Origin: a candidate division WOR-3 bacterium UBA5631
GTDB lineage: Bacteria > Hydrothermota > Hydrothermia > UBA1063
Direction of reading: 5' to 3'
Assembly (NCBI GenBank): GCA_002421425.1
Contig: DIJZ01000024.1
Span: 349 to 64,348, forward strand
Length of the DNA: 64,000 nucleotides
Part shown: piece by piece, positions 39,408 to 54,007 of the stretch
How positions within the stretch are numbered: position 1 is the first letter of the stretch
How the letters are laid out: each line of letters begins with the position of its first letter
The notes under the pieces: model-generated
Told to the model about the DNA's origin: nothing
The model's database searches: none
Seen by the model: the letters and a program-made list of their open reading frames with translations, nothing else
Program-made: the position numbers and the translations under genes

Positions 39408-40355
39408 TCACCAGAGAGTTAAAACCTTTCCAGATCTCAATATGATGCGCAGAAAACTCTGGTGGTTTTCATCATCATACTCATATTTTCTGCCCTGTAC
39501 ATCGCCAATTTCTGTATTGTTCCCAAAAAAGATGCCTGAAATCGTACGATAACGCCTTTCCGTAGTATCAAGTTTTACTCCAGAAACCGCAGCATGGAGA
39601 ACGAAATTTACCCCAAAACGTACAAAACCAACAACTACCCCTCTTGTTGAGTCCTGAAGGCAGTTAGCAGTTACTACAATCGTATCTCCTTGATGGGCTC
39701 CTCCAATCCTGATCGCTTCACCTGCAATTGTACCAACAAATCCGGGGCTTTTCCCTGTTGGAGTTGCACCAACATGACAGTGAACCACATCTTTAATTTC
39801 ATACTCCAATCCAAGAACGTTCTCAACGATAGAAAAAGATGACGTATACAAGCTTACATGACCCTTTTCAAGAATGAGGCCTCCCTGCAAAACGTGCAAA
39901 TATTGACCTTCCTCTATGTACTCATCAACGGAAAGTGTCAGATTCAAGGTATCACCACTAACATTTATCCACGTAAGAACAATCACCGAAGAGTCCCACC
40001 TCTGGGTAGTGACCCATCCTGTGTCACTATAGAAATATTGCCCAAAGGAATAATAATCCCTCAAATACAGATTTCTGTAAAGGTTAACGACATTTATAAA
40101 TGGGGTTGGATCCGTGGGGTCTTCGACCGGGTAACCTTTATCTATCCCAACAAGAATGGGAATGCCTTCAGGTTCGGGAAGTTGCGCAAGCTGAATATGA
40201 GCTTCACTGCTATCTATATCATTAATAAGCTGCCCAAGTTCACCTGTTGCAACTTCTGCTTCGTCCTCGTAAGGAAGTGAAGCCTTTTTACAGGAAAGAG
40301 TAAGCAGCAACAAAGCTATCAATATCACCAAAGATTTTTTCATTTTCACCTCCAT
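39408..40355 (-). CDS. hypothetical lipoprotein
   Basis: It has a signal peptide with lipobox LTLSC, followed by a beta-rich sequence without recognisable motifs. Confidence 0.4.
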   Translation of the reverse strand: MEVKMKKSLVILIALLLLTLSCKKASLPYEDEAEVATGELGQLINDIDSSEAHIQLAQLPEPEGIPILVGIDKGYPVEDPTDPTPFINVVNLYRNLYLRDYYSFGQYFYSDTGWVTTQRWDSSVIVLTWINVSGDTLNLTLSVDEYIEEGQYLHVLQGGLILEKGHVSLYTSSFSIVENVLGLEYEIKDVVHCHVGATPTGKSPGFVGTIAGEAIRIGGAHQGDTIVVTANCLQDSTRGVVVGFVRFGVNFVLHAAVSGVKLDTTERRYRTISGIFFGNNTEIGDVQGRKYEYDDENHQSFLRIILRSGKVLTLW

Positions 40356-40382: not shown

Positions 40383-43300
40383 TCAGTCAAGATTTTTATT
40401 TACCACCCGAAGAACGCCCAGTAAAAGGTGCGCCCCCTGCTCTCTCAGCATCCCAAACAGATAGCCTCTTGCTTTGGCGTCCGGTATCTTTGGGAACACA
40501 TCGATACTGCAAATCAACTTCAGATTCTCCTCATGGAGCAGCGAATGAAGCTCACTGGATCTCTCACCGCCCTGTAGAGCAAAAAGGGTCAACCATGAGA
40601 GCCTTATCTCGAGAGAAGCATTTCTTATTAAATCCAGCCACTGCATAAGGTTGTTCGGCTCAAGAAATGAAACCTTTCCATTACAAAGATATTCAAGCAT
40701 TCCAGCATTTATTAAGGATTCAACGTACCTCAACCCCTGTTCGGAAGAAGAATATTCTTTTACTTCCTTTATTATCTTTTCAGTTATCTGACAATCTCCT
40801 TTTAGTCCTCTGACTACTGCAATGTATACTCTTGCCTGCAGAACTCTTCCTGGATTGTTGAGCTTCAAAAATATCTCCTCCGCCCGCGTGAGCATATCAA
40901 TTGCCTGATCGAATTCCATTCTTTTATAAGCAATTATTCCTCGAAGCAGATATGCAATCCCAAGCCTTGAAGGAGCAAGCTCTGAAGCACTTAACATTAC
41001 TTCGTCCAGTAGAGACTCCGCCTTGTCAAATTCATGCAATTCTAAATTTATTCCAGCAAGATTAATTCTTGCTTCAGAATAGTAGTCGGGAGACTTCAAA
41101 TCCTTGAAGATCCTCATCGCTTCTTCATAATGCTGTCTCGCCTCATTAATCTTTCTCCGATTCACGAATACACGGCCAAGATTATTCAAGACCACAGCCA
41201 GAAGAAACCTGCTCCCGGATTTTTTCACGATTGCAAGGGCCTGATTTAAGGACTCCTCAGCACCATCGAGATCCCAGTTCCCAAGATAAATCTGGCTAAC
41301 ATTAATCAATATCTTCGCTCTGGAAATTAGCTCGCCGAGCTCCTCAAAAATTGACATGGCTTTTTCGTAATATGCGAGAGCACTACTAAAGTTGCCGTTA
41401 ATTTGCTCAATGTTACCAAGGAGGTTGAAATCTGCCCCAAGGGTTTTCAGTGACTCTCTCGAACTCAGTCCTGCCTTTTCAATAGCCTTAATACTCAATT
41501 GTGCGAAATGTAGAGCGTTTTTGTAATCACCTAATCTCCAGTATACCCAGGCCTTCTTGTAGCCGGCATAAGCCTGCAGCTCCGGGTCCGCAGACTTTGC
41601 GGGCTCCTCGAGATATTTGAATGCTTCTTCAAATCTCGACTGTTTCTCATAAATACTCGAAACAAGAATTTCGTACTTAAGTTTAATTGCAGAGTTTTCT
41701 TGAAGACCGTCCATATTCGCGTAAAGAATTTCCAGTGCGCTGTCATACTCTCCCAGACCCTCGAGACACTGAGCTATTTTGTAGGCTACCTCCTCATTCA
41801 TTCCAAGATTCCTGTAAGCCCTCAGAGCATAGCCATAAAACCCTTTTGAAAAGGCAAGATCACCAGCTTTTTCGTAGTATTCGAGAGCCTTTTCTTCGTC
41901 ACCAGAGTTTTCGAAATGGAAGCCAACCAGATAAAGCAAATGCTCATCCTTGGTTTTTACTCTCTCAAGTTCATGAGCCACAAGGCCATGCAGTCTCTCT
42001 CTTTCCCGCCTTGTTAGCAACGAATACACCGCATCTTTAAGTAATTCATTTTTAAAAATATATTCAAAATCCCCTTCAATGAATGTGGATCCCTGGGAAA
42101 TAATGAAACCTTCCTTTTCAAGAATGTTAAGGTCCTCCTCTACACTTCGATCCAGTATCTTTACAAGAATACCCTTCCAGAAATGTTTGCCAATCACCGA
42201 GGCAGCTTTCAGGACGTCTTTCTCTCTTTCAGGCAGGCTATCAATAGACTCCACAAGCAAGCCACTAATAGTTTCAGGCAGATGAAATTCTTCTGCTTTG
42301 AGCCTCAGAGGTCCATACTGGAGAAGGTCCTTGACCCTCAGGAAGAACACCAATTCTTCGATAAAGTAGGGATTACCTCGAGTCTTAGACAGCAGTGTCT
42401 CAACAAACTCCTGTGAAACATCTTCCTGGGCCATCTGAAGAATAGTTCGGCAAACGTCTCTTACGAAACCCTCTCCCATACCCGTAAGTTCAATCAAATA
42501 ATCAAATGGAATTGCCTCCATCGATTCTCTGGAAACAAAAACAAATATCATGGAACCCGATTGAATTTTCTCCCTGAACCCGAGGAAGAATTTTCGAGAT
42601 TCTCTATCCAGGAACTGCGCGTCATCCAGAAAAACCACCACTCTCTGCAAATCCTTCAACAATACTTCAACAATCCAGGACATTTGAGCTTCCACATCTT
42701 TCAAAATCTCCGGGGAGAAACGAACCTCACCGCTAAGGACACTTAAAATTCTAGAAGACAGCAAATCTGCATCATTTTTAGAAAAATTATGCATAGACTC
42801 GAGATATCTTGATATACTCTCAGAATCTAGTACTCCTTCCGTGACTATAGTAAATATGTCCTCTACGACCTTCCTGAAGCCATAAAGGGGAGTTTGCTTT
42901 ATGGGATCACACCTGAGATAGGTCTGCTTCACATTTTCAAGTTCTGTAGCAATATTGTTTCTTAATTCCGCGCAAAATCTGGTTTTTCCAATACCTGCAT
43001 CCCCGTAAATATTTACAAAGTAAATCCCACTATTCTTAAAAGCACCCCGCAGCCAACGGGAAACCGATTCAAGTTCTTCTTTCCTACCTGAAAAAGGGGT
43101 CTTAAACCTGCCACGAATGGAAAACTCACTCTCCACAGGCTTTTCTCCAAGCACCTCAAAAACCCTGATAGGCTCCTCTCTTCCTTTAACCTTTACCTGC
43201 CCAAATTCCCTGAAGAAGAAAAACTGGAAAGTAAGATTAACCATCGCCTCTGTAACATAAATCTTCCCGGGTTCTGCGAGTTCTTCTATCCTCTGCGCGA

Positions 43301-43712
43301 CATTTACAGTATCACCAAGCACCGTAGGCTTTTCTCCTGCGATTGAAGACCACAAAACTTCACCCGTATTTATCCCAATTCTCATTTTTATATCTACGCC
43401 TCTTTTTGCGTTCACTTCCTCTAGGTATTTCTGCATCGCCATAGCAGTGGCTATAGCTCTTCGCGGGTCATCACCGTGGGCAACAGGTGCCCCGAACACG
43501 GCCATCACAGCGTCACCGATGAATTTGTCCAGGTACCCTCCATTTTTCTCGATAATTTCCTTAAATTCTTTAAAAATCTCGTCAATCAGTTCCTGCAGGT
43601 CTTCTGGATCCAGGAATTCGGAGAGGCTTGTAAAACCCTTAATGTCCCCAAAGATCACCGTAACGCTTCTTCGTTCAGGCTTAACCTGCTTGCTTGAATA
43701 CATAGATGCCAT
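40383..43712 (-). CDS. class III adenylate/guanylate cyclase fused to STAND-type NTPase and C-terminal TPR array
   Basis: The N-terminal cyclase has VTVIFGDIKGFTSL…FIGDAVMAVFG. The NTPase has Walker A GDAGIGKTRF and Walker B VVVFLDDAQ. About 500 aa of TPR-like repeats follow. Confidence 0.75.
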   Translation of the reverse strand: MASMYSSKQVKPERRSVTVIFGDIKGFTSLSEFLDPEDLQELIDEIFKEFKEIIEKNGGYLDKFIGDAVMAVFGAPVAHGDDPRRAIATAMAMQKYLEEVNAKRGVDIKMRIGINTGEVLWSSIAGEKPTVLGDTVNVAQRIEELAEPGKIYVTEAMVNLTFQFFFFREFGQVKVKGREEPIRVFEVLGEKPVESEFSIRGRFKTPFSGRKEELESVSRWLRGAFKNSGIYFVNIYGDAGIGKTRFCAELRNNIATELENVKQTYLRCDPIKQTPLYGFRKVVEDIFTIVTEGVLDSESISRYLESMHNFSKNDADLLSSRILSVLSGEVRFSPEILKDVEAQMSWIVEVLLKDLQRVVVFLDDAQFLDRESRKFFLGFREKIQSGSMIFVFVSRESMEAIPFDYLIELTGMGEGFVRDVCRTILQMAQEDVSQEFVETLLSKTRGNPYFIEELVFFLRVKDLLQYGPLRLKAEEFHLPETISGLLVESIDSLPEREKDVLKAASVIGKHFWKGILVKILDRSVEEDLNILEKEGFIISQGSTFIEGDFEYIFKNELLKDAVYSLLTRRERERLHGLVAHELERVKTKDEHLLYLVGFHFENSGDEEKALEYYEKAGDLAFSKGFYGYALRAYRNLGMNEEVAYKIAQCLEGLGEYDSALEILYANMDGLQENSAIKLKYEILVSSIYEKQSRFEEAFKYLEEPAKSADPELQAYAGYKKAWVYWRLGDYKNALHFAQLSIKAIEKAGLSSRESLKTLGADFNLLGNIEQINGNFSSALAYYEKAMSIFEELGELISRAKILINVSQIYLGNWDLDGAEESLNQALAIVKKSGSRFLLAVVLNNLGRVFVNRRKINEARQHYEEAMRIFKDLKSPDYYSEARINLAGINLELHEFDKAESLLDEVMLSASELAPSRLGIAYLLRGIIAYKRMEFDQAIDMLTRAEEIFLKLNNPGRVLQARVYIAVVRGLKGDCQITEKIIKEVKEYSSSEQGLRYVESLINAGMLEYLCNGKVSFLEPNNLMQWLDLIRNASLEIRLSWLTLFALQGGERSSELHSLLHEENLKLICSIDVFPKIPDAKARGYLFGMLREQGAHLLLGVLRVVNKNLD

Positions 43713-44086
43713 TATTATATAGGATTATGTGGGTTTTGTGGGGTGTAATCACAGGTTTAATTGCGGGCATTGTGAGTGGATTTTTTGGCGTCGGTGGTGC
43801 CACTGTAATCACTCCCATTCTGATTTATTTTTTTAAGATGTCGCAACACAAAGCCCAAGGAACTTCTCTTGCTGCTTTGCTGCTCCCTGTAGGCCTGCTC
43901 GCCTTTCTTCAATATTACAAAGCAGGAAACGCCGACATCAAACTCGGTCTATCCATCGCCGTTGGAGTCTTTATGGGTGGGCTTCTGGGGGGGTCCCTGG
44001 CTCAGAAAATAAACCCTGTTGACCTCAGAAAAGCTTTTGCAATTTTCCTAATACTTGTAGGAATTCAGTTGTTCTTCAAAAAATAG
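43706..44086 (+). CDS. half-size TSUP (TauE/SafE-like) 4-TM membrane protein
   Basis: It has four helices and a Gly-rich GFFGVGGATVITP motif. The probable start is ATG 43727 (MWVLWG). Confidence 0.45.
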   Translation: MPLLYRIMWVLWGVITGLIAGIVSGFFGVGGATVITPILIYFFKMSQHKAQGTSLAALLLPVGLLAFLQYYKAGNADIKLGLSIAVGVFMGGLLGGSLAQKINPVDLRKAFAIFLILVGIQLFFKK

Positions 44087-44618
44087 GACTGACTTCAAAT
44101 TTGTTCCGTATCTTGTAGAAAATCTTCCCACTTGCGTATCCAAGTATTGCACCACATAAAACATCGGTGGGCCAATGTCTCCTCAAGTAAACCCTTGAAA
44201 GGGAAACCCCGCCTGCCCATAGGTACAGGGGTACGCTGTATTTGGGGTGCAGCGAGCTGAAGTAGGAAGCCACATAAAAAGCCGCAGTTGCATGCCCTGA
44301 GGGAAAAGAGGAATTGCTCCTTGAAGTGAAATTATCAGGTCTCTCCCTGTTTGTGATATATTTTAGAGACTGAACGATAAGGGAAGTGGCGCCAAATCCT
44401 ACAGCATAAGATCTCATTGACTTCATATCCATTGGTTCGTCAAAAGACCAGTACACGAGGGAACAAAAGAGCACGACTTCACCCTCGCCGCTTTTCGTCA
44501 GAGATTTAAATACTGCATCAGAAAATGGAGAATTAAGCCCCACTGATATTCTTTCAAGACCGATGGAATCAGCCCTGGCGAAGGAGAATAGAAGCAAAAA
44601 CTCCATAAGAATCTTCAT
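44076..44618 (-). CDS. PAP2-family lipid phosphatase
   Basis: It has the motifs KxxxxxxRP (KYITNRERPD), PSGH (FPSGHATAAF) and SRxxxxxHxxxD (SRVYLRRHWPTDV). Confidence 0.7.
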   Translation of the reverse strand: MKILMEFLLLFSFARADSIGLERISVGLNSPFSDAVFKSLTKSGEGEVVLFCSLVYWSFDEPMDMKSMRSYAVGFGATSLIVQSLKYITNRERPDNFTSRSNSSFPSGHATAAFYVASYFSSLHPKYSVPLYLWAGGVSLSRVYLRRHWPTDVLCGAILGYASGKIFYKIRNKFEVSPIF

Positions 44619-44878
44619 AAACTAAGCCTCCTTTTTAGCTCTTCATGCGAAATATCTTCAAGTATTTCTAAAATTTTCCTCCTGGACCTCAGACCCGAGA
44701 CTATTCTTATATTTTCTCTTCTAACTCCTATTTTCTTTGCAATAAAATCTAAGAGGCCGTTGTTGGCTTTCCCCTGAATCGGCGGTTCTTTTACCATAAC
44801 CGTAATCTTTGAACCCTTGAATTGCATACCATATCTTTTTGAAGAGGGGATCACCTCAACCTCCAGACTAACTCCCAT
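44615..44878 (-). CDS. DUF167/YggU-family small protein
   Basis: It is 87 aa with …VKEPPIQGKANNGLLDFIAKKIGV… typical of UPF0235. Confidence 0.55.
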   Translation of the reverse strand: MGVSLEVEVIPSSKRYGMQFKGSKITVMVKEPPIQGKANNGLLDFIAKKIGVRRENIRIVSGLRSRRKILEILEDISHEELKRRLSL

Positions 44879-44987
44879 TTTAGTATTATAATGTAAAAAA
44901 TTCGAATTCGGGCTTTAAATCAAATGAATTTCCGGTCGATTTTTAATACTTGCTTTTGAACCATTTTTCATTTAAAATATTTTTAAT

Positions 44988-47900
44988 ATGGAAGAACTGT
45001 TTTTGGTAGACCCCTTAACTCAGCTGTACCATCACAATTATTTCATCGTAAGAATTGGGGAAGAAGTTGCGAGAGCCAAAAGAAAAGGTACTCCACTTTG
45101 TCTGCTTTTCATAGATTTGGACTTCTTCAAGATGATCAACGATAACTTTGGCCACCCTGTAGGGGATGAGGTCTTGAAGCAGTTCGCAATTTCTCTGAAA
45201 AATGCTGTGAGAGAATCTGACCTGATCTTTCGCTATGGAGGAGATGAATTCACCATAATTCTTCCGGAGACTTCTAAGGACGATGCAATAAAAATTGCCC
45301 AGAGGATCAAGGAGACCCTTGAGGATCAGGGATACGGCCCTTCAAAGAATCTGAAACTGTCTTTAAGTATCGGGATTTCACAATTTCCCCTTGATGGAGT
45401 AAATGCCGATGAGATCCTTCAAAAAGCAGATGAAAGAACGTTGAGCAGCAAAAAAACAGGAAGAGGAAAGATAGTATATACCAGCGATATAAGAGAAGAA
45501 ACGCTCAATATATCCCTTTCCGCTGCCCGCATTATTGGGAGGGAAAAGGAAATTAGCAGCTTTACGCAGCTTCTCACAGAGTTCAAGAACACTTCAAAAA
45601 GATTTATTGCCCTCCTGAAAGGCGTAAGGGGCGTGGGGTTAACCAGGCTCCTCGAAGAAATTTCGAAAGTTGCCGATATTCTTGGCATAAGGACATTACA
45701 TGTAACCGTCAAGGAGAAGGATGTAAAAGAGCCTTTCCCGCTCTTGAAAGCAATGCTTCGCGAGCTTATACGCGACGAACACCAGCTGGTCCTGGATGAG
45801 GCGCAGAAGAATATTGTTGCATACTTGATCCCAGAGGCTTTCCCTGGGGAATCCCTTAGAACTATCACCATAAGTGAACACAAAGTAATCCCTGTAGTTT
45901 TAGATTTACTCTGCGCAAAGAAGGCAGAAGATAAGTTACTCTTAAACATCGACAATGGGCAGAATATTACAAAGAGATGTATCCTCCAGCTAATTCATAT
46001 CCTGAAAGAAGAAAGCGCGAGAGACATATCTCTCATTATTGCGAAGACGAGCAGAAATATGTTTGAAGAAGAACTGAAAACCCTTTATGGTGACCTCTAC
46101 AATTTCGAGATCCTGCCACTAAAACGCGAAGAGATAAAGACAATCCTGTGGCAAATCCTGAGATTCGAGCCTGAAGATGAATTCCTTGATTGGATAATGG
46201 CAAAAACTGGGGGAAGGCCACTCTATGTCGATAGAGTCCTGAATACCCTGTTACTTTCCAAGAAACTGTTCCCGGGAGAGACGCACTGGATACTTAGTGA
46301 GTCATATTACTCAGGTGTTGAGGACATTTCGCTACCTCTTGCCGAAGAAATTACAAGCCTTGCACCTCAGGAACGTGAAGTCCTTGAGTTCTGTGCAGTT
46401 TACAACCTCGACTTTTCCACCTCTGTGATAGCAGCCCTTACAGAATTAACCATTACACAGGTTCTGGAGATATTTGATAATCTAACAAGAAATGGATACC
46501 TCGAAGAAATAATTCCTTACAATTTATATAGATTTGCAAACCCCTTTGTCAGGGAGATCATCTATTCACAAATTCCAAAAGAGAAGCGTACAAAGATGCA
46601 CTTCAGAATTGCAAGAATCCTCGACAATAATCCTGATGAAACGGCCAGACTGAACCCACAGATATTATATGAGCACTATATTCAGGGCGGTATGGAGAGT
46701 AAAGCAATCCCGTATATGGAGCTCATGGTAAAGAATGCCATTAAGAAGAGGGAATTCAAGAAAGCAATTCGTCTGATTCAAAGAATATTCGAAATTGCCG
46801 AATATAAACTCCAGATTTCAGAAAAAATAAGATTGTTGAGGGAATTGGCTGTTTGTTTAAGAAACGAAGGTGAAATAGAAGATAGTATTACAAAATTGAA
46901 GATGGCTCTGGAACTAGCAGAAAAATATAACGAAAAATATGAAGAAGCTCTGGTAAGGCTTGAGATTGCATGGATTCAGCATGAGAAGTACGAATCTAAA
47001 GAGCTTTTTATTAACATAGAAGAAATTCAGCAAATAGCGAATCAGATAAAGGACAAAGAAATTCTCGCAAGAGCCTTAATTTACAAAGCATTATATTATA
47101 TAGACTTTGAAAACAATAAGACAAAAGCAGTACTCACCCTTGATGAAGTACTAAACCTCGTAAAAGAGGAAGAGAATCACGAGATTCTTGCACAGGTGTA
47201 TGGAAATCTCGGGAAATGCTATTCACAGCTGAAACAGAACAATAAAGCAAAGGAGAGCTTTGAAATCGCGCTTTATCATGCAAGATTGTGCGAAAATCCG
47301 GATTACCTTGCGTCAATAATGCTGAACTATGGAACTACGCAGTATATTATGCAAGATGTCGAAAGCAGCCGGAAAACCTTCGAAAAAACTCTCGAATTAA
47401 TAAGAAGGGAAAATATCAGGCATCTTATGCCTCATCTTTATTCGAACCTCGCAATGATTTACGTCAACTATGGTGAATATCCAATATCCATAAACTATCT
47501 GGAACAGGCTTTGGATTATGCAAAGGATATGAATCTTGAAGCAGAGGCGCTCACATATTCAGCATACCTTTATGGAGTGAGGGCGTATCTGGGTGATCAC
47601 CAATACTATGAGTCCAAACTTCGTGAGGTTGCGGAAACCGCAAAATACAAGAACTATATGCAAGCATGGGAACGTGCAAATATGTATCTCGTTCACATTT
47701 ATTCCTTCCTCGGCGACTTCACCAATCTTGGGAAGGTAATTAAGAACATCGAGAGCTTCAGGAACCCGAGATCGAAAATGCTCGCAGAAATTGCTGTTTT
47801 GGAAAACCTCGTTGTTTTCTTAAAGGATCCTCGTAAAATAAGAGAACCTTTAATTAATAGAAGAAGGGAAGCCATTGAAAAGGGAGACTTCACCAGTGAA

Positions 47901-48344
47901 ATTGGGTGCAGTGTAGCCTCCTATCTCTATTATTTGCTTACTGGAGATCCAATAGAAATCAACCTCGAAAAGGTACTGGAATCCTCAAAAGCCGCAAAAG
48001 TGACAAAGTGTTACATTGATGCGATTCTTTACGAGCTAGTTTTAGGTAACGCCAGTCGAAAGTACCTTGAAGAGGCAAAATCCCTTGAAAGTCACTTCAA
48101 TCTTAAACAAAAACTACTTTTTGATATTGCCAGTCTGAGGGTGGAGCTGGTAAGTGGCGAAGTAGAAAATCCTGTAGAAAAGCTTGATGAGCTTGAGAAA
48201 AAACTGAAAGAAGTAAAAGCCAGATTATTGATGAATTTTCTTTACAGAGTTGCCATCAAATACTTCAGCGATATTGATGCTTCTCTGGCCTCATCCTTCA
48301 GTGAAAAATTGCAACCACTACTTACGAATCAGATGGCCCCGTAA
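44988..48344 (+). CDS. GGDEF diguanylate cyclase fused to degenerate STAND-type NTPase and TPR array
   Basis: The GGDEF domain has an RYGGDEF A-site and an RESD I-site. The NTPase-like region has GVRGVGLT in the Walker A position (Lys replaced by Leu) and LLLNIDN in the Walker B position. A long TPR region follows. Confidence 0.75.
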   Translation: MEELFLVDPLTQLYHHNYFIVRIGEEVARAKRKGTPLCLLFIDLDFFKMINDNFGHPVGDEVLKQFAISLKNAVRESDLIFRYGGDEFTIILPETSKDDAIKIAQRIKETLEDQGYGPSKNLKLSLSIGISQFPLDGVNADEILQKADERTLSSKKTGRGKIVYTSDIREETLNISLSAARIIGREKEISSFTQLLTEFKNTSKRFIALLKGVRGVGLTRLLEEISKVADILGIRTLHVTVKEKDVKEPFPLLKAMLRELIRDEHQLVLDEAQKNIVAYLIPEAFPGESLRTITISEHKVIPVVLDLLCAKKAEDKLLLNIDNGQNITKRCILQLIHILKEESARDISLIIAKTSRNMFEEELKTLYGDLYNFEILPLKREEIKTILWQILRFEPEDEFLDWIMAKTGGRPLYVDRVLNTLLLSKKLFPGETHWILSESYYSGVEDISLPLAEEITSLAPQEREVLEFCAVYNLDFSTSVIAALTELTITQVLEIFDNLTRNGYLEEIIPYNLYRFANPFVREIIYSQIPKEKRTKMHFRIARILDNNPDETARLNPQILYEHYIQGGMESKAIPYMELMVKNAIKKREFKKAIRLIQRIFEIAEYKLQISEKIRLLRELAVCLRNEGEIEDSITKLKMALELAEKYNEKYEEALVRLEIAWIQHEKYESKELFINIEEIQQIANQIKDKEILARALIYKALYYIDFENNKTKAVLTLDEVLNLVKEEENHEILAQVYGNLGKCYSQLKQNNKAKESFEIALYHARLCENPDYLASIMLNYGTTQYIMQDVESSRKTFEKTLELIRRENIRHLMPHLYSNLAMIYVNYGEYPISINYLEQALDYAKDMNLEAEALTYSAYLYGVRAYLGDHQYYESKLREVAETAKYKNYMQAWERANMYLVHIYSFLGDFTNLGKVIKNIESFRNPRSKMLAEIAVLENLVVFLKDPRKIREPLINRRREAIEKGDFTSEIGCSVASYLYYLLTGDPIEINLEKVLESSKAAKVTKCYIDAILYELVLGNASRKYLEEAKSLESHFNLKQKLLFDIASLRVELVSGEVENPVEKLDELEKKLKEVKARLLMNFLYRVAIKYFSDIDASLASSFSEKLQPLLTNQMAP

Positions 48345-48747
48345 GTTTAGCCTCGAATCGAAACAGTAAATTCCTTAATCTCGCATCGAAAAGTCTCAGC
48401 ACAAGGAAGTACACAGCCATTAGTATAAACCCTGAAATAGCACTAAAAACTTCTTTGAATCCAAGCCATTGACCAGTATAGTAACCTGCAACAAAGGCAA
48501 AAATTGGAAAAATAAAAATTAGTGCCGCTGCAATTAGAATTCCTATTGTGTTTTCTTCAACGATAACAATATCTGCAGTCTTCAAGTCGCGACCTCTAAC
48601 TTCGATTACGTCCTCACTTTCCGTCTTACGCCCAAGGCTACAGAATTTCGCGAGAGTACAGGACGAGCAGGAACTGTCCTTAAAGACCTTAACCTGATAT
48701 TTCCCACTTGAAAGTTCTGACAATACAATTCCTTTGATTTCCGCCAT
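48322..48747 (-). CDS. rseC: RseC/MucC-family protein (Rnf-associated)
   Basis: It has an N-terminal Cys cluster (CSSCTLAKFC) and C-terminal TM helices. It is adjacent to rnfB. Confidence 0.55.
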   Translation of the reverse strand: MAEIKGIVLSELSSGKYQVKVFKDSSCSSCTLAKFCSLGRKTESEDVIEVRGRDLKTADIVIVEENTIGILIAAALIFIFPIFAFVAGYYTGQWLGFKEVFSAISGFILMAVYFLVLRLFDARLRNLLFRFEAKLTGPSDS

Positions 48748-49575
48748 CTATAATGTCTTAACCTCCGCAAACTTACTGTCCAGCGCAATAGCACCCGTTG
48801 GACAAACTCCAATCACCTTTTCAGCCACTTCATCGACTTTATGTGAATCGATTATATACGCAAGATTGTTTTCAAGCTTCATCGATCCTTCGGGTGCTTG
48901 CTTTACACAAAGGCCACAACCAATGCAGGCAACCTTACAGTAGCTCTTCGCCACAGGGCCTCTATCCAGGCTCTTGCAGAACACAAAGACCTTTCGGTCC
49001 TGAGGCACGAGTTCAATAATTTCCCTCGGGCATGCCTCCACACACTTTCCGCAAGCAGTGCACTTCTCTTCAATAATGTGAGGCAATCCATCATCACCAA
49101 GATACATAGCACCAAATTTGCATGCTTTTACACAGTCACCAAAACCGAGGCATCCGTATATGCAGCCCTTATCACCTTTTATCGTCATATCTGCAACTCT
49201 GCACGAGTTTATTCCGTTGTACTCAGCTCTCCTAATTGCATTCTCAAGAGACCCATTGCACATCAGCTTTGCAACTCTCTTTTCAACACTCACTGCATCA
49301 AGACCGAGGATATGGGCAACTTTATTGGCAACATCCTGACCGCCAGGTGCACACTTCCCGGGATTTTTTTCCTGGCCACTGGCAAGAGCTTCTGCATACC
49401 CTGCGCATCCTGCATACCCGCAAGCACCACAGTTTGCACCAGGAAGTGCATCAAGAAGTATTTCAACTCGAGGGTCTTCGTGAACTGAAAGTTTTTTGTA
49501 TGAAATCACAAGGAACAATCCGAAAAAAAGACCGAGACCAAGGGTAAGCAAAAGGCTTATAAGAATAATGTTCAT
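48748..49575 (-). CDS. rnfB: Rnf complex subunit B (polyferredoxin)
   Basis: It has an N-terminal TM helix, CGACGYAGCAGYAEA and multiple CxxCxxCxxxCP ferredoxin motifs. Confidence 0.8.
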   Translation of the reverse strand: MNIILISLLLTLGLGLFFGLFLVISYKKLSVHEDPRVEILLDALPGANCGACGYAGCAGYAEALASGQEKNPGKCAPGGQDVANKVAHILGLDAVSVEKRVAKLMCNGSLENAIRRAEYNGINSCRVADMTIKGDKGCIYGCLGFGDCVKACKFGAMYLGDDGLPHIIEEKCTACGKCVEACPREIIELVPQDRKVFVFCKSLDRGPVAKSYCKVACIGCGLCVKQAPEGSMKLENNLAYIIDSHKVDEVAEKVIGVCPTGAIALDSKFAEVKTL

Positions 49576-49586
49576 TTCTTGCCTCC

Positions 49587-50171
49587 TTACTGTAATGTAA
49601 TAATTCCAGAAAACCCCATAAACGCAAAAGCCATTAATCCTGCAATGAGGAGGGTTATTGGCGCACCCTTTAGGGCTTTTGGAACATCCCGTACTTCCAG
49701 TTCTTCTCTAATTCCCGAAATTAACAAAAGGGCTATGGTGAAACCAACACCAGCGCCAAATCCAAAGAACGTGTTCTCTATTAAATTGTAATTTCTCATC
49801 GCACCAAGGAGAGCCAGACCCAGAACAATACAATTGGTTGTAATGAGCGGCAGAAAAATGCCAAGGGCCTTATAAAGAGAAGGAGATGCCTTCTTGATGA
49901 CCATCTCCACAAACTGCACCAGCACAGCAATAACAAAAATGAAAACAATCATCTGAAGAAAATCCAAATGTAGAGGCCTTAAGATAAGATGGTCAACAAC
50001 ATTCGTAATAATTGCCGTCATTGTCATCACAAAAGTTGCTGCAAAACCCATACCTATAGCCGAAGAAACTTTGGCTGACACACCCAGAAACGGACACAAA
50101 CCTAAGAAGTATGTGAGAATAAAGTTGTTGGTGATCGCTGCAGCTATAAAGATAATCAATGGTCTTACCAT
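49587..50171 (-). CDS. rnfA: Rnf complex subunit A
   Basis: It is a 194-aa polytopic protein with a typical RnfA/NqrE N-terminus (…LGLCPFLGVS…). Confidence 0.85.
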   Translation of the reverse strand: MVRPLIIFIAAAITNNFILTYFLGLCPFLGVSAKVSSAIGMGFAATFVMTMTAIITNVVDHLILRPLHLDFLQMIVFIFVIAVLVQFVEMVIKKASPSLYKALGIFLPLITTNCIVLGLALLGAMRNYNLIENTFFGFGAGVGFTIALLLISGIREELEVRDVPKALKGAPITLLIAGLMAFAFMGFSGIITLQ

Positions 50172-50183
50172 GGTGTTGCCTCC

Positions 50184-50789
50184 TTATTCCTTCCTTGTTA
50201 TGAAGTTCATAAAGCCTATAAGCATTGCAAGGGTCAAAAATGCTCCGGGAGGAAGAATCATCACCAGGATTGGTTTGAAAGAAGAACCAAAAATCCTAAA
50301 TCCCAGGATACTGCCAAACCCAAGTATTTCTCTGATGATCCCCATAAGCAGTATAGCGATCAAATAACCAGCACTCATGCCTAATGCATCCATTATGGAA
50401 GGTAATAACTTATTCTTTTTCGTGAAGGCTTCTTGTCTTCCAAGAATTATGCAGTTCACAACAATAAGCGGGATGTAAGGCCCAAGAGCTTTAGAGATGT
50501 CAGGAAACTTGGCCTTCAGGAACAGGTCAGCAATAGTAACAAACGTGGCGATTACAACAATGAAAGCAGGGATTCTCACTTCAGAAGGTATCAAATCCTT
50601 TACAAGTCCAATTACAAAAGAAGAGAAGAAAAGCACAAACAACACTGCAATTCCCATGGAAATGCTGTTTACGACAGTATTCGAGACTGCAAGGACTGAG
50701 CACAATCCCAGAAGCTGCACCAACACAGGGTTTTCCTTAAAAAACCCCTTGAAAAATTCAAAACCGAGATTTCTGTTATTTGATGCCAT
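50184..50789 (-). CDS. rnfE: Rnf complex subunit E
   Basis: It has the RnfE/NqrD-type sequence …NPVLVQLLGLCSVLAVS…. I start at internal ATG 50789, just after the rnfG stop. Confidence 0.85.
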   Translation of the reverse strand: MASNNRNLGFEFFKGFFKENPVLVQLLGLCSVLAVSNTVVNSISMGIAVLFVLFFSSFVIGLVKDLIPSEVRIPAFIVVIATFVTIADLFLKAKFPDISKALGPYIPLIVVNCIILGRQEAFTKKNKLLPSIMDALGMSAGYLIAILLMGIIREILGFGSILGFRIFGSSFKPILVMILPPGAFLTLAMLIGFMNFITRKE

Positions 50790-51741
50790 TTTTGATCTCC
50801 TTTTTGAGGATTTCAAACCCCGTGTTCACTGCGGAAATGATAGCATCCTGAGTTACTGTTGCACCGGTCACTACCTCTACCCCTTTAATGTTCAGTGGCA
50901 GAGCCTTTCCCTTCAATTTCTGAGAAAACTCTTCGAATTTTGTTCTATTGACAGCCACTTCAGAACCATCAAGAACCAGCAGGTCTTCAATTCTCGAAAC
51001 TTTTGTGTCTACGCAAAGAAAAACTGCGACACTATCACTGTACCCAAGCCCTCTTGCAATTATTCCATAGCCAAGAATTTCGCCTTCCTCTTCTAAGAAA
51101 TACAAGGACCCTCTTTTCTCCATTCTGACTCCTGGCATTACTTTCTGCAGGTATCCTTCCACTTTTACCTCCAGACTATCTTTCCCAGTCTCACCTGATA
51201 AATTCTCCTTCAGCACCTTTTGAGCATTATTCACTATCGCCGCCACAGATTTCGAAGATATAGTAGCCCCAGTAATAGCCTGTACTTGCGATTTCTTTTC
51301 AGGCTTCTGACCCTTTAACACCTCAATAGGTGGGGTAGTCCCCTCAAACTGCTTTTTGAAGCCATCCTCTACTATTCTATTCCCAAGCCCAGGAGTCTCA
51401 ACGTTTTCAAGAACTTCGATTCCAAGCACCGTGTCTCCACTGGGGTTGAATCCCACCATTAGCTTTATCGCGCCCTGAAATCCTCCACCGGTTATCATAA
51501 CACCGTAACCCAGAACTGAACCGTCGCTCCCTTTTGCAGTTAGAATTGAAGTCTTGTCATCAATCACCTGCTCCTCGTAGCTCTCAGTTCCCTTCACCAC
51601 TGAAAGGAGTGCCGTTTTCTTCGAATTATCCAGATTTCGCTGAATGGCTTCCTGGGTAGAGACATATGTGTATGCAAGAATACTTCCAGCAAAAGCGATA
51701 ATCACAGTAAGAACGATGATCATCCTGTATTCTTTTCTCAT
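50776..51741 (-). CDS. rnfG: Rnf complex subunit G with two FMN-binding domains
   Basis: It has an N-terminal TM helix. The first FMN_bind domain has ETPGLG and AITGATISS. The second FMN_bind-like domain ends VVTGATVTQ. I start at ATG 51741, adjacent to the rnfD stop. Confidence 0.7.
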   Translation of the reverse strand: MRKEYRMIIVLTVIIAFAGSILAYTYVSTQEAIQRNLDNSKKTALLSVVKGTESYEEQVIDDKTSILTAKGSDGSVLGYGVMITGGGFQGAIKLMVGFNPSGDTVLGIEVLENVETPGLGNRIVEDGFKKQFEGTTPPIEVLKGQKPEKKSQVQAITGATISSKSVAAIVNNAQKVLKENLSGETGKDSLEVKVEGYLQKVMPGVRMEKRGSLYFLEEEGEILGYGIIARGLGYSDSVAVFLCVDTKVSRIEDLLVLDGSEVAVNRTKFEEFSQKLKGKALPLNIKGVEVVTGATVTQDAIISAVNTGFEILKKEIKNGIK

Positions 51742-52694
51742 CTTCGAACCTCCCCAAGAATTCTTGGCTCCGTAAGCCTGTCTATCCATGGTCTTATCGT
51801 ATTCATTATAAGAATACTGAACATTACCCCCTCAGGGTAACCTGAGAAGAGTCTTATTAACACCACAAAAAATCCTGCGAATATCCCGTAGATAACCCTT
51901 CCCTTAGAAGTAATAGGAGAAGTAACCATATCCGTAATCATGTAAAAGGCTCCGAGCATTAGACCTCCTGACAGGATGTGGAAGAGCGGGTCTGGATACT
52001 TCGCTGGATTAATTAGCCACATAATCCCTCCGAAGAAGAAGACCGATGCGATGTAAGAAAGAGGAAGCCTGAAATCGACATAACCCTTCAATATTAGAAT
52101 TAATCCACCAATAATCAAAAGGAGTGCGGATGTTTCCCCCATAGACCCTGAGACATTTCCGAAAAAGAGATCTTTGTAAGGAGTGAGTACCTTCATAAAT
52201 TTGAAAGTAGCAAGAGGAGTGGCACCTGTAAAAGTGTCGGGAGCCATAAGTCGCGTTGGCACCCAGGTAGTACCATCAACTGGGAAAGCTGCCATCAGAA
52301 ACGCCCTTCCAATTAGAGCAGGATTGAAGATATTCTGACCTATGCCACCGAAAAACTGTTTAGCAAAGACAATTGCAAAAGCCGACCCAAGGGCTGCTTC
52401 CCATAAAGGAAATCTCGGAGGAAGCGTAAGGGCGAGAAGGATTCCAGTAATTACTGCGCTTCCGTCAAGGCACTGTGAGACATCTCTTCCTCTTAATTTG
52501 AGAAAGATGGCTTCCACGACTACTGCTGTCGCAGCACTTACAAGCATCACAAGAATAGGATAAAATCCAAAGAAATAAACAGCCCCAGCAGCGGGAAACA
52601 GCAGTGTAAAAACGGTAAACCACATCACCCTTTTAACACTTTCTGAAGTTCTAATATGAGGTGATACAGATAAAATGAAATTTGGCTCACTCAT
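51738..52694 (-). CDS. rnfD: Rnf complex subunit D
   Basis: It is a polytopic NqrB/RnfD-like protein with the flavinylation-region motif …TGATPL…. I start at ATG 52694, adjacent to the rnfC stop. Confidence 0.85.
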   Translation of the reverse strand: MSEPNFILSVSPHIRTSESVKRVMWFTVFTLLFPAAGAVYFFGFYPILVMLVSAATAVVVEAIFLKLRGRDVSQCLDGSAVITGILLALTLPPRFPLWEAALGSAFAIVFAKQFFGGIGQNIFNPALIGRAFLMAAFPVDGTTWVPTRLMAPDTFTGATPLATFKFMKVLTPYKDLFFGNVSGSMGETSALLLIIGGLILILKGYVDFRLPLSYIASVFFFGGIMWLINPAKYPDPLFHILSGGLMLGAFYMITDMVTSPITSKGRVIYGIFAGFFVVLIRLFSGYPEGVMFSILIMNTIRPWIDRLTEPRILGEVRR

Positions 52695-54007
52695 GAGGCC
52701 CTCCTCAATTCCTGCTTCCCGTATTTGATCCACTGCACATGATTAATCTTTGAAGGACAGGCATAGGCACAGGATCCACACTCAATGCAATCCAGAAGCC
52801 CGTACTTTTCCTTCGCATCAAAATATCTTCCTGCTTTGACATACTCCACCAACATAAGTGGCAATAACCCCATTGGACATACGTCAACACATTTTGAACA
52901 CCTAATGCAATTGTATTCCTCAAATTTTTTAGCAGTCTTATGAGTGAAAAGCAATATTCCTGAGGTGCCCTTAATTACCGGGACATCCAGAGTATACTGA
53001 GCTATGCCCATCATAGGTCCACCATTTATAACCTTAACAACCTTTTCTTCCATACCACCTGTCATTTCGATGACATCAAGGAATTTCGTCCCGATCCTTA
53101 CAAGGTAGTTACCAGCGCCCCGGGCACCATCTCCCGAAAGAGTTAACACTCTCTCTATTAGAGGCTTCCCGTACCTCACAGCTTCGTAGATTGCAAGGGC
53201 TGTCTGAACGTTCTGAACGAGACACTTCACATCCATTGGCAAACCGCCCCTGGGAACTTCCCTTTTTGTAAGAGCCTTTATTAGCTGTTTCTCAGCACCC
53301 TCCGGGTACTTTGTCTTCACGATTTTGAGTTCAAACCCGTCAAATTCACCAATAACCTCGCTTACCTTCCCTGCAGCTTCTGGCTTGTTATCCTCTATGG
53401 CAACTATAACTCTACCCGCCCCCAAAGCCTTCTTTATAAGATATGCACCCAAAAGTACCTCTTTAGCCCTTTCCTGCAAAATTCTATCATCAGCTGTGAG
53501 AAATGGCTCGCATTCCGCACCATTAATAATTACCGTATCTATTGGCTTATCTTTAGGTGGAGATAGCTTCACATGCGTGGGAAAAGCAGCACCGCCCAAT
53601 CCAACTATTCCAGCCTCCTTTACAGCACTTACAATATCCTCAGGGCTGGATTCCTGCCAGTTAGCTCTTTCTGCAGGCTCCTCAAACCACTCATCCTTTC
53701 CATCAGGCTCAATCACAATAACCGGGGAAGAAGTCAGAAGAACTGGATGAGGATGTTCAATTATCGTTCTGATTTTACCGGAGGTTGGAGCATGGATATT
53801 TGCTGAAATAAAACCATCAGCCTCGGCTATCTTCTGGCCTTTCTTTACGTCATCTCCCCTTTTTACCAGGGGTTTTGCTGGCTTTCCCGTATGCTGGCAC
53901 AGAGGTATGAACAGAGCAGACGGGACTTGAAGCCTTTCAATTGCTTTACCAGTGGTTACCTTATGATAAGGGGGATGAATTCCTCCTGGAAATGTGTATT
54001 TCGCCAT
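52691..54007 (-). CDS. rnfC: Rnf complex subunit C (NADH-binding, 2x[4Fe-4S])
   Basis: It has GLGGAAFPTHVK, a C-terminal CIRCSKCVDVCP and CIECGSCAYACP. Confidence 0.85.
   Translation of the reverse strand: MAKYTFPGGIHPPYHKVTTGKAIERLQVPSALFIPLCQHTGKPAKPLVKRGDDVKKGQKIAEADGFISANIHAPTSGKIRTIIEHPHPVLLTSSPVIVIEPDGKDEWFEEPAERANWQESSPEDIVSAVKEAGIVGLGGAAFPTHVKLSPPKDKPIDTVIINGAECEPFLTADDRILQERAKEVLLGAYLIKKALGAGRVIVAIEDNKPEAAGKVSEVIGEFDGFELKIVKTKYPEGAEKQLIKALTKREVPRGGLPMDVKCLVQNVQTALAIYEAVRYGKPLIERVLTLSGDGARGAGNYLVRIGTKFLDVIEMTGGMEEKVVKVINGGPMMGIAQYTLDVPVIKGTSGILLFTHKTAKKFEEYNCIRCSKCVDVCPMGLLPLMLVEYVKAGRYFDAKEKYGLLDCIECGSCAYACPSKINHVQWIKYGKQELRRAS

Follow-up and report, generated by a model that had tools for sequence, protein, structure and literature searches.

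MalT, the STAND transcription activator of Escherichia coli with a TPR-like sensor, requires ATP binding for oligomerization and, like the archaeal protein 6mfv, has the module fold followed by a MalT-like TPR superhelix; its effector is a C-terminal DNA-binding domain. The Mycobacterium tuberculosis cyclases of the Rv0386/Rv1358/Rv2488c type run from a class III cyclase through an AAA_16 NTPase with canonical Walker A/B motifs to TPR (or HTH) domains, and the mycobacterial cyclase-STAND proteins end in LuxR-type HTH domains. The NCBIfam family TIGR03903 describes TOMM kinase/cyclase fusions. In WOR-3, Aegiribacteria, and Stahlbacteria, proteins annotated as “diguanylate cyclase” have the order GGDEF-AAA_16-TPR; all of these pass AAA_16, and 48/51 possess the Walker A Lys. 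The same STAND module family includes three Ser/Thr kinase-AAA_16-TPR proteins (P0254, P0260, and P0282), which have lost that Lys independently. Finally, the plant NLR pairs RGA5/RGA4 and RRS1/RPS4 are adjacent, divergent STAND genes that form heterocomplexes and in which one of the partners can dispense with a working P-loop (PMC9528088).

Two proteins, here termed A and B, are encoded in the window, a stretch of 64,000 nucleotides from the candidate division WOR-3 bacterium UBA5631. A has the order of the mycobacterial cyclases and is an ordinary member of a very large cyclase-AAA_16-TPR family, with thousands of homologs annotated as “class 3 adenylate cyclase/predicted ATPase.” TIGR03903 matches it at 1e-46 over aa 8 to 626; however, the score of 159 bits falls short of the cutoff of 706, and A has no kinase domain. 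B shares the architecture and length of the “diguanylate cyclase” proteins, from which its clade alone departs by the P-loop signature G-x-[KR]-G-x-G-[LI]-[ST] and the loss of the HWAD Asp. Unlike MalT, it has an N-terminal enzyme as its effector and lacks the Walker A Lys. The lysine-less kinase proteins (P0254 reads GGFGLGLS with VDN) differ from B in their Pkinase effector and in passing AAA_16 at 58 to 62 bits. As for the plant NLR pairs, these are strictly head-to-head with a shared promoter and demonstrated heterocomplexes, whereas A and B have three genes between them; further, the P-loop of the plant sensor NLR is present though dispensable, whereas in B the Lys itself is gone, and A and B differ from the plant pairs in having enzymatic effectors on both partners.

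Architecture and neighborhood of A and B

TABLE 1 Features of the A/B locus, in window positions; the spacer genes (43706..44878) are listed to delimit the pair and are not counted in it
Feature	Position	Strand	Details
HD-GYP/GAF protein	28868-30769	minus	HD_5 6e-34 + GAF
315-aa ORF	39408..40355	minus	27 nt downstream of A, same strand; lipoprotein-like N-terminus
ORF A	40383..43712	minus	1109 aa; class III adenylate cyclase + AAA_16-type STAND module + TPR array
A, TPR sensor array	40863..41915	minus	about aa 600-950
A, Walker B VVVFLDDAQ	42615..42641	minus	aa 358-366; then conserved distal Asp (FLD)
A, Walker A GDAGIGKT	42981..43004	minus	aa 237-244; canonical
A, cyclase catalytic domain	43170..43673	minus	aa 14-181
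Half-size TauE	43706-44086	plus	A-B spacer gene
PAP2 phosphatase	44076-44618	minus	A-B spacer gene
DUF167/YggU	44615-44878	minus	A-B spacer gene
ORF B	44988..48344	plus	1118 aa; GGDEF diguanylate cyclase + lysine-less STAND module + TPR array
B, GGDEF domain	45006..45467	plus	aa 7-160; TIGR00254 1.2e-47
B, I-site RESD	45210..45221	plus	aa 75-78; 5 residues upstream of GGDEF; invariant in 8 orthologs
B, A-site GGDEF	45237..45251	plus	aa 84-88; invariant; RYGGDEF = aa 82-88
B, STAND module	45531..46787	plus	aa 182-600; nucleotide-binding-like + helical domain + winged helix
B, degenerate Walker A GVRGVGLT	45621..45644	plus	aa 212-219; Lys to Leu; basic residue at loop position 3
B, Walker B-like strand LLLNIDN	45936..45956	plus	aa 317-323; first Asp retained, second acid = Asn
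B, TPR sensor array	46788..47927	plus	about aa 601-980

A preliminary description of this DNA reported two divergent ORFs of about 1,110 aa across a three-gene spacer, and the coordinates and sizes agree with this (Table 1): the 5' ends of A and B point toward one another, with 43713-44987 between them. In one related locus (L002), the TauE gene is not called, leaving two spacer genes there.

Pfam identifies in A a Guanylate_cyc domain (1.1e-32), AAA_16 (1.4e-11; 45.6 bits against a cutoff of 32.6), TPR_12 (6e-33), and TPR_MalT. The cyclase domain possesses the metal Asp residues D23 and D67, the substrate pair K63/T130, and N137/R141, all of which are invariant across 11 relatives; in an alignment with Pseudomonas aeruginosa CyaB (3r5g), K63 and T130 fall on the equivalent K and T. 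The canonical Walker motifs described earlier for A are indeed found, and all its orthologs keep canonical NTPase motifs: D363, D364, and D369 are invariant, and the Walker A Lys is present in 107/107 cyclase-STAND relatives.

In B, the corresponding matches are to GGDEF (1.2e-42) and TPR_MalT (6.7e-11), which is common to both proteins, with AAA_16 reaching just 19.8 bits, below the cutoff of 32.6. Both the A-site and the I-site of its GGDEF domain are intact, as first reported, and invariant among orthologs. The helical domain of the B module carries a TGGRPLY (GxP) motif. A ligand-free AF2 model of the module (pLDDT 83.8, pTM 0.72) has Apaf-1, CED-4, MalT (8bob), and the STAND-TPR protein 6mfv as its top Foldseek matches, and the module is thus predicted to adopt the Apaf-1/CED-4/MalT fold. 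The label “NACHT-like” had been applied to these NTPases, but it is wrong: Pfam ranks AAA_16, ATPase_2, and TPR_MalT highest, and they are of the AAA_16/MalT type.

A and B align in BLASTP searches (E of 6e-16 over about 970 aa) with their NTPase motifs opposite each other, and profile-profile comparison of the modules with hhalign gives 99.9% (E of 4.6e-35, 755 columns). The homology of the two NTPase regions proposed at the outset therefore holds, and Pfam, BLASTP, hhalign, and Foldseek agree on the common effector/STAND/TPR architecture. Overall identity is about 18 to 21%; the switch (NOD) module of B is 18% identical to that of A and 19% to those of canonical GGDEF-STANDs, and the TPR arrays are about 17% identical. 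A and B are not recent duplicates.

The 315-aa ORF beside A matches no Pfam family but is kept in 7/7 loci, and a homolog with 24% identity adjoins distant cyclase-STANDs in two other loci (L087 and L089); we list it as a putative partner of A. The HD-GYP/GAF gene, also present as described before, sits inside the same conserved block as A and B. No defense-system signature was found.

Degeneration and conservation of the B module

The altered Walker A and Walker B-like motifs initially noted in B are confirmed in position and residues. The clade signature is seen in 11/11 B orthologs, none of which has GKT, so the lysine loss is neither chance nor a sequencing error. In the wider family, the Lys is found in 139/145 best module matches from a search of 1.84 billion proteins. 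P0241, the nearest relative of B (30% identity over the full length), reads GDRGCGKT and VDDAHWMD and is its positional ortholog, being convergent to rseC-rnfB like B. As this protein, beside the same rseC-rnf genes, keeps both the P-loop Lys and DD, the lysine loss is a derived state that has become fixed in a single WOR-3/Hydrothermia lineage; the outgroups L007, L008, L040, and L024 read GVGK[ST]. Beyond the lysine, the HWAD motif has lost its distal Asp and the sensor-1 Arg is no longer fixed in the clade; both changes are specific to B. The module identity between B and A is 0.178, versus 0.211 between canonical GGDEF-STAND outgroups (L007, L008, and L040) and A; the divergence of the B module took place on its stem.

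The change of DD to DN, taken earlier as a further sign of a dead NTPase, is real; it does not carry that meaning, since 24/51 GGDEF-STAND relatives pair DN with an intact GKT (24 DN versus 18 DD among those with an intact Walker A). Nonetheless, the B module is very probably unable to hydrolyze NTP. The broader claim that it probably cannot bind NTP either goes too far: sequence is no guide to binding here, because B still has the Gly-rich loop, the Ser/Thr, and the first Asp of Walker B.

The mean pairwise identity among orthologs is 0.39 for the module core of B and 0.38 for that of A, and 0.56 and 0.52, respectively, for the helical and winged-helix part. The P-loop segment is conserved above the module average in both proteins (B, 0.73 versus 0.61; A, 0.72 versus 0.55), the GxP and winged-helix motifs of B are highly conserved (0.88), and the B ORF is uninterrupted, at about 1,120 aa, in 11/11 orthologs with identity down to 52%. 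Since the B module is conserved as much as that of A, it is evidently maintained by purifying selection as strong as that on A and is not decaying; this selection after the lysine loss suggests that the module still works.

Possible workings of the pair and of the B pocket

The best explanation, which we hold with slightly more confidence than doubt, is that A and B are separate STAND enzymes and that the module of B turned into a hydrolysis-independent scaffold in one WOR-3/Hydrothermia lineage. Each combines an N-terminal cyclase needing dimerization, a central switch module, and a C-terminal TPR sensor. A most likely works in a MalT/Apaf-1-like manner: a signal at the TPR array would open the module, ADP would be exchanged for ATP, and in the resulting oligomer the class IIIb adenylate cyclase domains would pair to produce cAMP. 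The ancestor of B was an equally ordinary GGDEF-AAA_16-TPR protein, whose module would have become a pseudo-NTPase by replacement of the Walker A Lys with Leu/Ile, loss of the distal acid after Walker B, and relaxation of the sensor-1 Arg. We infer that it now probably serves as a scaffold independent of nucleotide hydrolysis that relays the TPR-sensed input to pairing of the GGDEF domains, and that the intact I-site, not an ATPase reset, would cap the c-di-GMP output.

An alternative, in line with the preliminary description, is an obligate pair, in which the pseudo-NTPase module of B hetero-oligomerizes with the ATP-competent module of A and one TPR-sensed event controls both cAMP and c-di-GMP (different messengers rather than the “opposite” outputs first supposed). 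This might resemble the plant sensor/helper NLR pairs, with their heterocomplexes and dispensable sensor P-loop, or the inactive subunits of clamp loaders. A and B are adjacent and divergent in 7/7 loci reaching far enough, their ortholog clusters are equal in number (8 per protein), and the conservation of the B module would be equally expected if its retained job were docking onto A. Further, lysine loss co-occurs with adjacency: around L007, L008, and L040, the P-loop-intact B relatives on sufficiently long contigs, no cyclase-STAND lies within 10 kb. However, the contig of P0241 is too short to date the adjacency relative to the lysine loss, and about 25 kb of neighborhood (nadC/sucD, rnf, POR, and rpoA) is syntenic in the same loci, so that the adjacency has no independent weight; lineage-wide, it is indistinguishable from general synteny. 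A and B are not head-to-head, the intervening genes being unrelated and in their own orientations, nor are they mutual closest relatives, and distant cyclase-STAND relatives of A have no GGDEF-STAND neighbor. A heterodimer of GGDEF and class III cyclase domains would form neither active site, and hence higher-order mixed rings would be needed. Nothing in the divergent TPR arrays suggests a common ligand. Given the synteny, the unpaired relatives of A, and the low identity, hetero-oligomerization or a shared ligand is possible but unsupported, and we regard the obligate pair as unlikely.

It is also conceivable, if quite improbable, that B binds nucleotide without turnover, the position-3 Lys/Arg, the Ser/Thr, and the Walker B Asp holding ATP-Mg in a slow or locked-on switch. 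Position 3 of the P-loop, which we take to be that of Ras Gly12, facing the gamma-phosphate, is K/R in 11/11 B orthologs versus 0/107 cyclase-STAND relatives and 9/145 family modules; G212, G215, G217, [ST] at 219, and R220 are conserved within the well-conserved P-loop segment, and a single ortholog lacks the first Walker B Asp. Against this, the basic residue co-occurs with the canonical Lys in P0241 and 7 other family members and thus predates the loss rather than having been acquired as compensation, and P-loop NTPases can generally no longer bind nucleotide once the Walker A Lys is replaced.

In FleQ, the Walker A region of the AAA+ domain is a binding site for c-di-GMP, and by analogy the B pocket might have been repurposed as a sensor of cyclic nucleotides (cAMP from A, or c-di-GMP), which would constitute direct cross-talk between two messengers. 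The conserved Gly-rich loop with its extra basic residue would fit such a role, as would the presence of the adenylate cyclase and the HD-GYP/GAF protein in the same conserved block; however, Pfam detects no known cyclic-nucleotide-binding motif in the B module, and we consider this very improbable. A reading of the NTPase-like region as a relic undergoing decay, or of B as an incipient pseudogene, is barely credible: the subthreshold AAA_16 score and three degenerate motifs are outweighed by the intact ORF, the confident model, the conserved GxP and winged-helix motifs, and conservation equal to that of the active paralog. The family includes a c-di-GMP-making STAND enzyme, judged by its GGDEF domain, that lost its switch lysine lineage-wide and yet stays conserved.

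Two STAND Proteins with Different Effectors

ORF A and ORF B lie with their 5' ends facing each other across a 1.3-kb spacer, and the divergent arrangement around three intervening genes was recovered as the preliminary description had it, as was every motif quoted there for the two proteins. In Pfam terms, ORF A combines a Guanylate_cyc domain (aa 14-181; 1.1e-32), an AAA_16 domain (aa 207-379) and a TPR array that includes TPR_MalT; ORF B combines a GGDEF domain (aa 7-160; 1.2e-42), a weak AAA_16 region and TPR_MalT/TPR_12 repeats. Against the AAA_16 (PF13191) gathering threshold of 32.6 bits, ORF A scores 45.6 bits, whereas ORF B stays below it at 19.8 bits (E = 1.2e-3). A direct BLASTP comparison nevertheless aligns the two over about 970 residues (E = 6e-16; 21% identity) and brings both Walker motifs opposite their counterparts, and alignment by hhalign of a profile of 8 ORF B orthologs to a profile of 11 ORF A relatives gives 99.9% probability (E = 4.6e-35; 755 columns). 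Hence, the homology of this region to the module of ORF A is secure despite the subthreshold domain score.

Features at the locus
Feature	Position (nt)	Strand	Remarks
HD-GYP/GAF protein	28868-30769	minus	GAF and HD-GYP (HD_5) domains
315-aa ORF	39408-40355	minus	lipoprotein-like N terminus (…LLLLTLSCKK…); 27 nt downstream of cyclase gene
ORF A (cyclase-STAND-TPR)	40383-43712	minus	1109 aa
TauE/SafE-family gene	43706-44086	plus	spacer gene; half-size, 119-126 aa
PAP2 phosphatase		minus	spacer gene
DUF167/YggU		minus	spacer gene
ORF B (GGDEF-STAND-TPR)	44988-48344	plus	1118 aa
Degenerate Walker A of ORF B	45621-45644		GVRGVGLT
rseC-rnfBAEGDC operon	48322-54007 and beyond	minus	complete; immediately downstream of ORF B

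A sequence search of solved structures with the switch modules returned matches only to the effector and TPR parts, so a search by fold was needed. A confident AlphaFold2 model of ORF B residues 165-601 (pLDDT 83.8; pTM 0.72) was compared with the PDB by Foldseek, and the top matches were Apaf-1 (1.6e-10), CED-4, Cdc6/Orc1, MalT (8bob), the archaeal STAND-TPR protein 6mfv, and plant NLR resistosomes. The 2004 definition of STAND NTPases by Leipe, Koonin, and Aravind comprises a Walker A of the form GxxxxGK[ST], a Walker B of the form hhhhD[DE], a tripartite fold with a GxP motif, a repeat sensor with a separate effector, and a nucleotide-dependent oligomerization switch. ORF B has the tripartite fold, with an alpha/beta P-loop domain, a helical domain bearing the GxP motif (TGGRPLY, invariant) and a winged helix; both proteins have C-terminal repeat sensors (TPR_12, TPR_MalT) and N-terminal effectors. 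ORF B thus carries a genuine STAND switch module (NOD), and while the shared effector-NTPase-TPR architecture proposed earlier holds, the NTPase is of the AAA_16/MalT kind rather than NACHT-like.

The cyclase of ORF A has the metal-binding aspartates D23 and D67, the substrate pair K63/T130 and the transition-state residues N137 and R141, all invariant in 11 relatives. The substrate pair aligns with the Lys/Thr of Pseudomonas aeruginosa CyaB (3r5g); the same positions in the guanylate cyclase Cya2 (2w01) are Glu/Gly. In the Linder-Schultz classification, ORF A would most likely belong to the adenylate cyclases of class IIIb. The GGDEF domain of ORF B scores 145.8 bits against Pfam GGDEF and 161.8 bits against TIGR00254, and 8 orthologs share D43, D45, K48, N51, D60, R75-E-S-D78, G84-G-D-E-F88, K155 and R159 without variation. 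The A-site and I-site that had been reported are thus intact; together with the metal and GTP residues and the position of the RxxD I-site five residues upstream of the A-site, they predict an active, product-inhibited diguanylate cyclase, the residues being presumably equivalent to those of PleD. Both class III cyclases and GGDEF domains need to dimerize, and such effectors would be well suited to activation through STAND oligomerization.

The Walker A Lysine of ORF B

The Walker A of ORF A (GDAGIGKT) is canonical in all of its orthologs. That of ORF B is replaced by the pattern G-x-[KR]-G-x-G-[LI]-[ST]-R in 11/11 orthologs (52 to 60% identical to the protein in the window; drawn from the protein database and the loci L006, L085, and L086), with Leu or Ile in the place of the lysine; none keeps GKT, whose presence would have told against the preliminary description. 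Elsewhere in the family the lysine is nearly universal: it is kept in 107/107 cyclase-STAND relatives and in 48 of the 51 GGDEF-AAA_16-TPR relatives. When 1.84 billion representative proteins were searched with a profile of the ORF B module, 139 of the best 145 matches also had it; in that library the ORF B clade forms just one cluster at 50%. Outside this clade the closest relative is the GGDEF-AAA_16-TPR protein P0241 (L088 1160-4564; JGI 3300013103; E = 4e-62), which is 30% identical to ORF B over its full length and has canonical GDRGCGKT and VDDAHWMD motifs. It is a positional ortholog, being likewise convergent to rseC-rnfB, and its upstream gene is related to none of YggU, PAP2, and the cyclase. 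Since GVGK[ST] is also present in other outgroups from Aegiribacteria, Stahlbacteria and another WOR-3 metagenome-assembled genome (MAG), the loss of the lysine is derived and restricted to a single lineage, with members that appear at NCBI under WOR-3 or Candidatus Hydrothermia. The module of ORF B is, to judge from its motifs, very probably a pseudo-NTPase that cannot hydrolyze nucleotide, and it may not bind nucleotide either.

Two further changes accompany this loss. The Asp of the HWAD motif after Walker B is absent from ORF B, and the sensor-1 Arg is not fixed (T, K, K, R, and R in five orthologs), whereas ORF A and the outgroups, including the canonical GGDEF-STANDs, keep these residues. 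The Walker B itself (LLLNIDN) has its first Asp in all but one ortholog and always Asn second, where ORF A has DD. This substitution had been read as a second sign of a dead NTPase; it is real but uninformative as an inactivation marker, because DN occurs alongside an intact GKT in the outgroups L007, L008, and L040 and in 24/51 GGDEF-STAND relatives (DD in 18), which makes it a tolerated family variant.

Besides the first Walker B Asp, all three glycines of the loop survive in ORF B, as do the Ser/Thr and the following Arg. The protein also has a basic residue at loop position 3 in 11/11 orthologs, found in 0/107 cyclase-STANDs and in 9 of the 145 best-matching family modules. A rival reading takes the module to be locked in a nucleotide-bound state by this Lys or Arg. 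However, P0241 and seven other lysine-containing modules combine an Arg here with the canonical Lys, so the basic residue is older than the loss and was rejected as compensation for it. Another rival has the pocket re-used for a cyclic nucleotide.

Conservation speaks to a further rival, decay of the module. Expressed as mean pairwise identity across the same five genomes, the values for ORF A and ORF B, respectively, are 0.74 and 0.69 in the effector, 0.38 and 0.39 in the module core, 0.52 and 0.56 in the helical and winged-helix domains, and 0.49 and 0.53 in the TPRs; the P-loop segment lies above the module average in both (0.73 versus 0.61 in ORF B; 0.72 versus 0.55 in ORF A). Relaxed selection or decay of the ORF B module is contradicted by these domain-wise identities, nearly the same as those of ORF A, and by the conservation of its P-loop segment. 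The ORF B module did change faster along its stem: the comparison with ORF A gives 0.178 for it and 0.211 for the canonical GGDEF-STANDs, which fits a burst followed by renewed constraint.

Taking these findings together, we propose, as the likeliest mechanism, that ORF A would be a conventional ATP-switched STAND adenylate cyclase, and ORF B a STAND diguanylate cyclase whose module, turned pseudo-NTPase, is kept as a structural coupler from the TPR sensor to the pairing of GGDEF domains. Its output might be capped by feedback through the I-site in place of an ATPase reset.

Locus Organization and the Question of Pairing

That the two proteins form a hetero-oligomer, as the preliminary description envisaged, or an obligate complex is unsupported and seems unlikely to us. 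Every locus long enough to show it, seven in all (the window, L001, L002, L003, L006, L085, and L086), has them as neighbors, and in plant NLR pairs the P-loop of the sensor is dispensable (PMC9528088), an analogy that offers a lead rather than a test. On that sensor/helper model, a pair is genetically linked and its products assemble into a heterocomplex. However, everything else in these seven loci is collinear as well, namely, pmbA, aspartate dehydrogenase, nadC, sucD, a thioesterase, the Rnf operon, pyruvate:ferredoxin oxidoreductase (POR), rplQ, rpoA, and rpsD, so common descent alone accounts for the adjacency. Loci in which this gene order is lost show no pairing: there is no cyclase-STAND within 10 kb of the canonical GGDEF-STANDs of L007, L008, and L040, and no GGDEF-STAND at the more distant cyclase-STAND loci L087, L089, and L090. 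Conserved adjacency was accordingly set aside as uninformative. The known contigs with P0241 span only about 6 kb, too short to date the adjacency relative to the loss of the lysine. Further, no recent duplication links ORF A to ORF B, whose TPR arrays are only about 17% identical; hence, nothing points to the common ligand suggested earlier.

The GAF and HD-GYP gene, about 10 kb from the cyclase gene, was confirmed at its place. It keeps this position in the most distant syntenic loci, L085 (22859 onward) and L086 (22920 onward), and belongs to the same conserved block, so its position is no specific evidence for action on the c-di-GMP made by ORF B.

The association of ORF A with the 315-aa ORF extends further than that with ORF B. 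This ORF has no Pfam, NCBIfam or PADLOC match and is kept in 7/7 syntenic loci at 43 to 52% identity. A 24%-identical homolog, convergent in orientation, adjoins the distant cyclase-STANDs (35 to 37% identical to ORF A) of L087 (13282-14136) and L089 (11294-12133) in otherwise unrelated neighborhoods; none lies beside the cyclase-STAND of L090.

In the spacer, a scan of 43400-45200 found no promoters or terminators. The TauE/SafE-family product covers only the C-terminal half of its Pfam model (125-237 of 237), and this half-size form is kept in most orthologous loci, though not called in L002. As listed, its ATG (43706, plus) and that of the cyclase gene (43712, minus) give the genes a 7-nt overlap. 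Since the TauE genes of orthologous loci are called at 118 to 119 aa, the true start is probably Met8, and the divergent genes would then lie about 14 nt apart (43713-43726). The 3' end of ORF B shares 23 nt (48322-48344) with the convergent rseC-like gene. In the orthologous loci rnf is followed by POR genes and then rplQ-rpoA-rpsD, ordinary housekeeping surroundings that argue against a mobile or defense island. A Pycsar-type system would have the cyclase gene beside a cyclic-nucleotide-binding effector in a variable defense-island context. For ORF A, the PycC models match only the generic cyclase domain (1e-21), and PADLOC returned no match for ORF B or the ORF downstream of ORF A; on these results and the conserved housekeeping neighbors, a Pycsar or Avs-like defense reading was rejected.

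Related Proteins and Significance

Cyclase-AAA_16-TPR proteins are abundant and routinely annotated, the nearest curated family to ORF A being NCBIfam TIGR03903, whose threshold it misses by a wide margin; WOR-3 and its relatives commonly encode GGDEF-AAA_16-TPR proteins. The searchable literature yielded no characterized GGDEF-STAND or AAA_16 protein of this kind. Beyond ORF B, lysine-less modules occur in three Ser/Thr-kinase-AAA_16-TPR representatives, and two other modules have Arg instead. The former, P0254, P0260, and P0282 (GGFGLGLS, GEMGMGVS, and AETGMGSS; AAA_16 at 58 to 62 bits), are by their P-loops predicted to be further natural pseudo-NTPase STANDs with another effector. A separate GGDEF family (L009, L010, L018, L038, L039, and L022; P0009, P0010, P0012, P0014, and P0043) has tandem P-loop modules and spans several phyla, in MAGs labeled Longimicrobiaceae, Bacillota, Rubrivivax, Trueperaceae, and Pilimelia. 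Its first P-loop, directly after the GGDEF domain, is mostly GxxGSG[RH][ST], with Arg or His (one Phe) at the lysine position; some 250 aa further on, the second has the canonical GPGGIGKT of an NB-ARC. The fusion of GGDEF to a noncanonical P-loop module thus recurs independently.

STAND proteins such as MalT, Apaf-1, the NLRs, and Avs are thought to rely on an ADP/ATP switch, and to our knowledge dispensable P-loops are known mainly from plant sensor NLRs. In its most ambitious form, the proposal would make ORF B a STAND enzyme that natural evolution has rendered independent of nucleotide, with an ATP pocket now vacant or put to a new use (for cAMP supplied by the cyclase next door, or for docking on the ATP-competent module of ORF A), and the two proteins the first bacterial “sensor/helper-like” STAND pair, with cAMP and c-di-GMP synthesis on a common switch; we consider this a long shot. 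If the two are independent, the finding shrinks to one more lineage-specific pseudoenzyme domain. As predicted from its motifs, ORF B is a STAND pseudo-NTPase fixed in its lineage, whose effector can be assayed and for which nature supplies well-matched controls: its Walker A lysine is absent lineage-wide while the module is still under selection, its c-di-GMP output makes it a bacterial case that can be read enzymatically, and the controls are built in, namely, the canonical positional ortholog P0241 and the neighboring ATP-competent paralog ORF A. With it one could test directly how a STAND module functions when it does not turn nucleotide over, and whether a pseudo-NTPase STAND needs an active partner.
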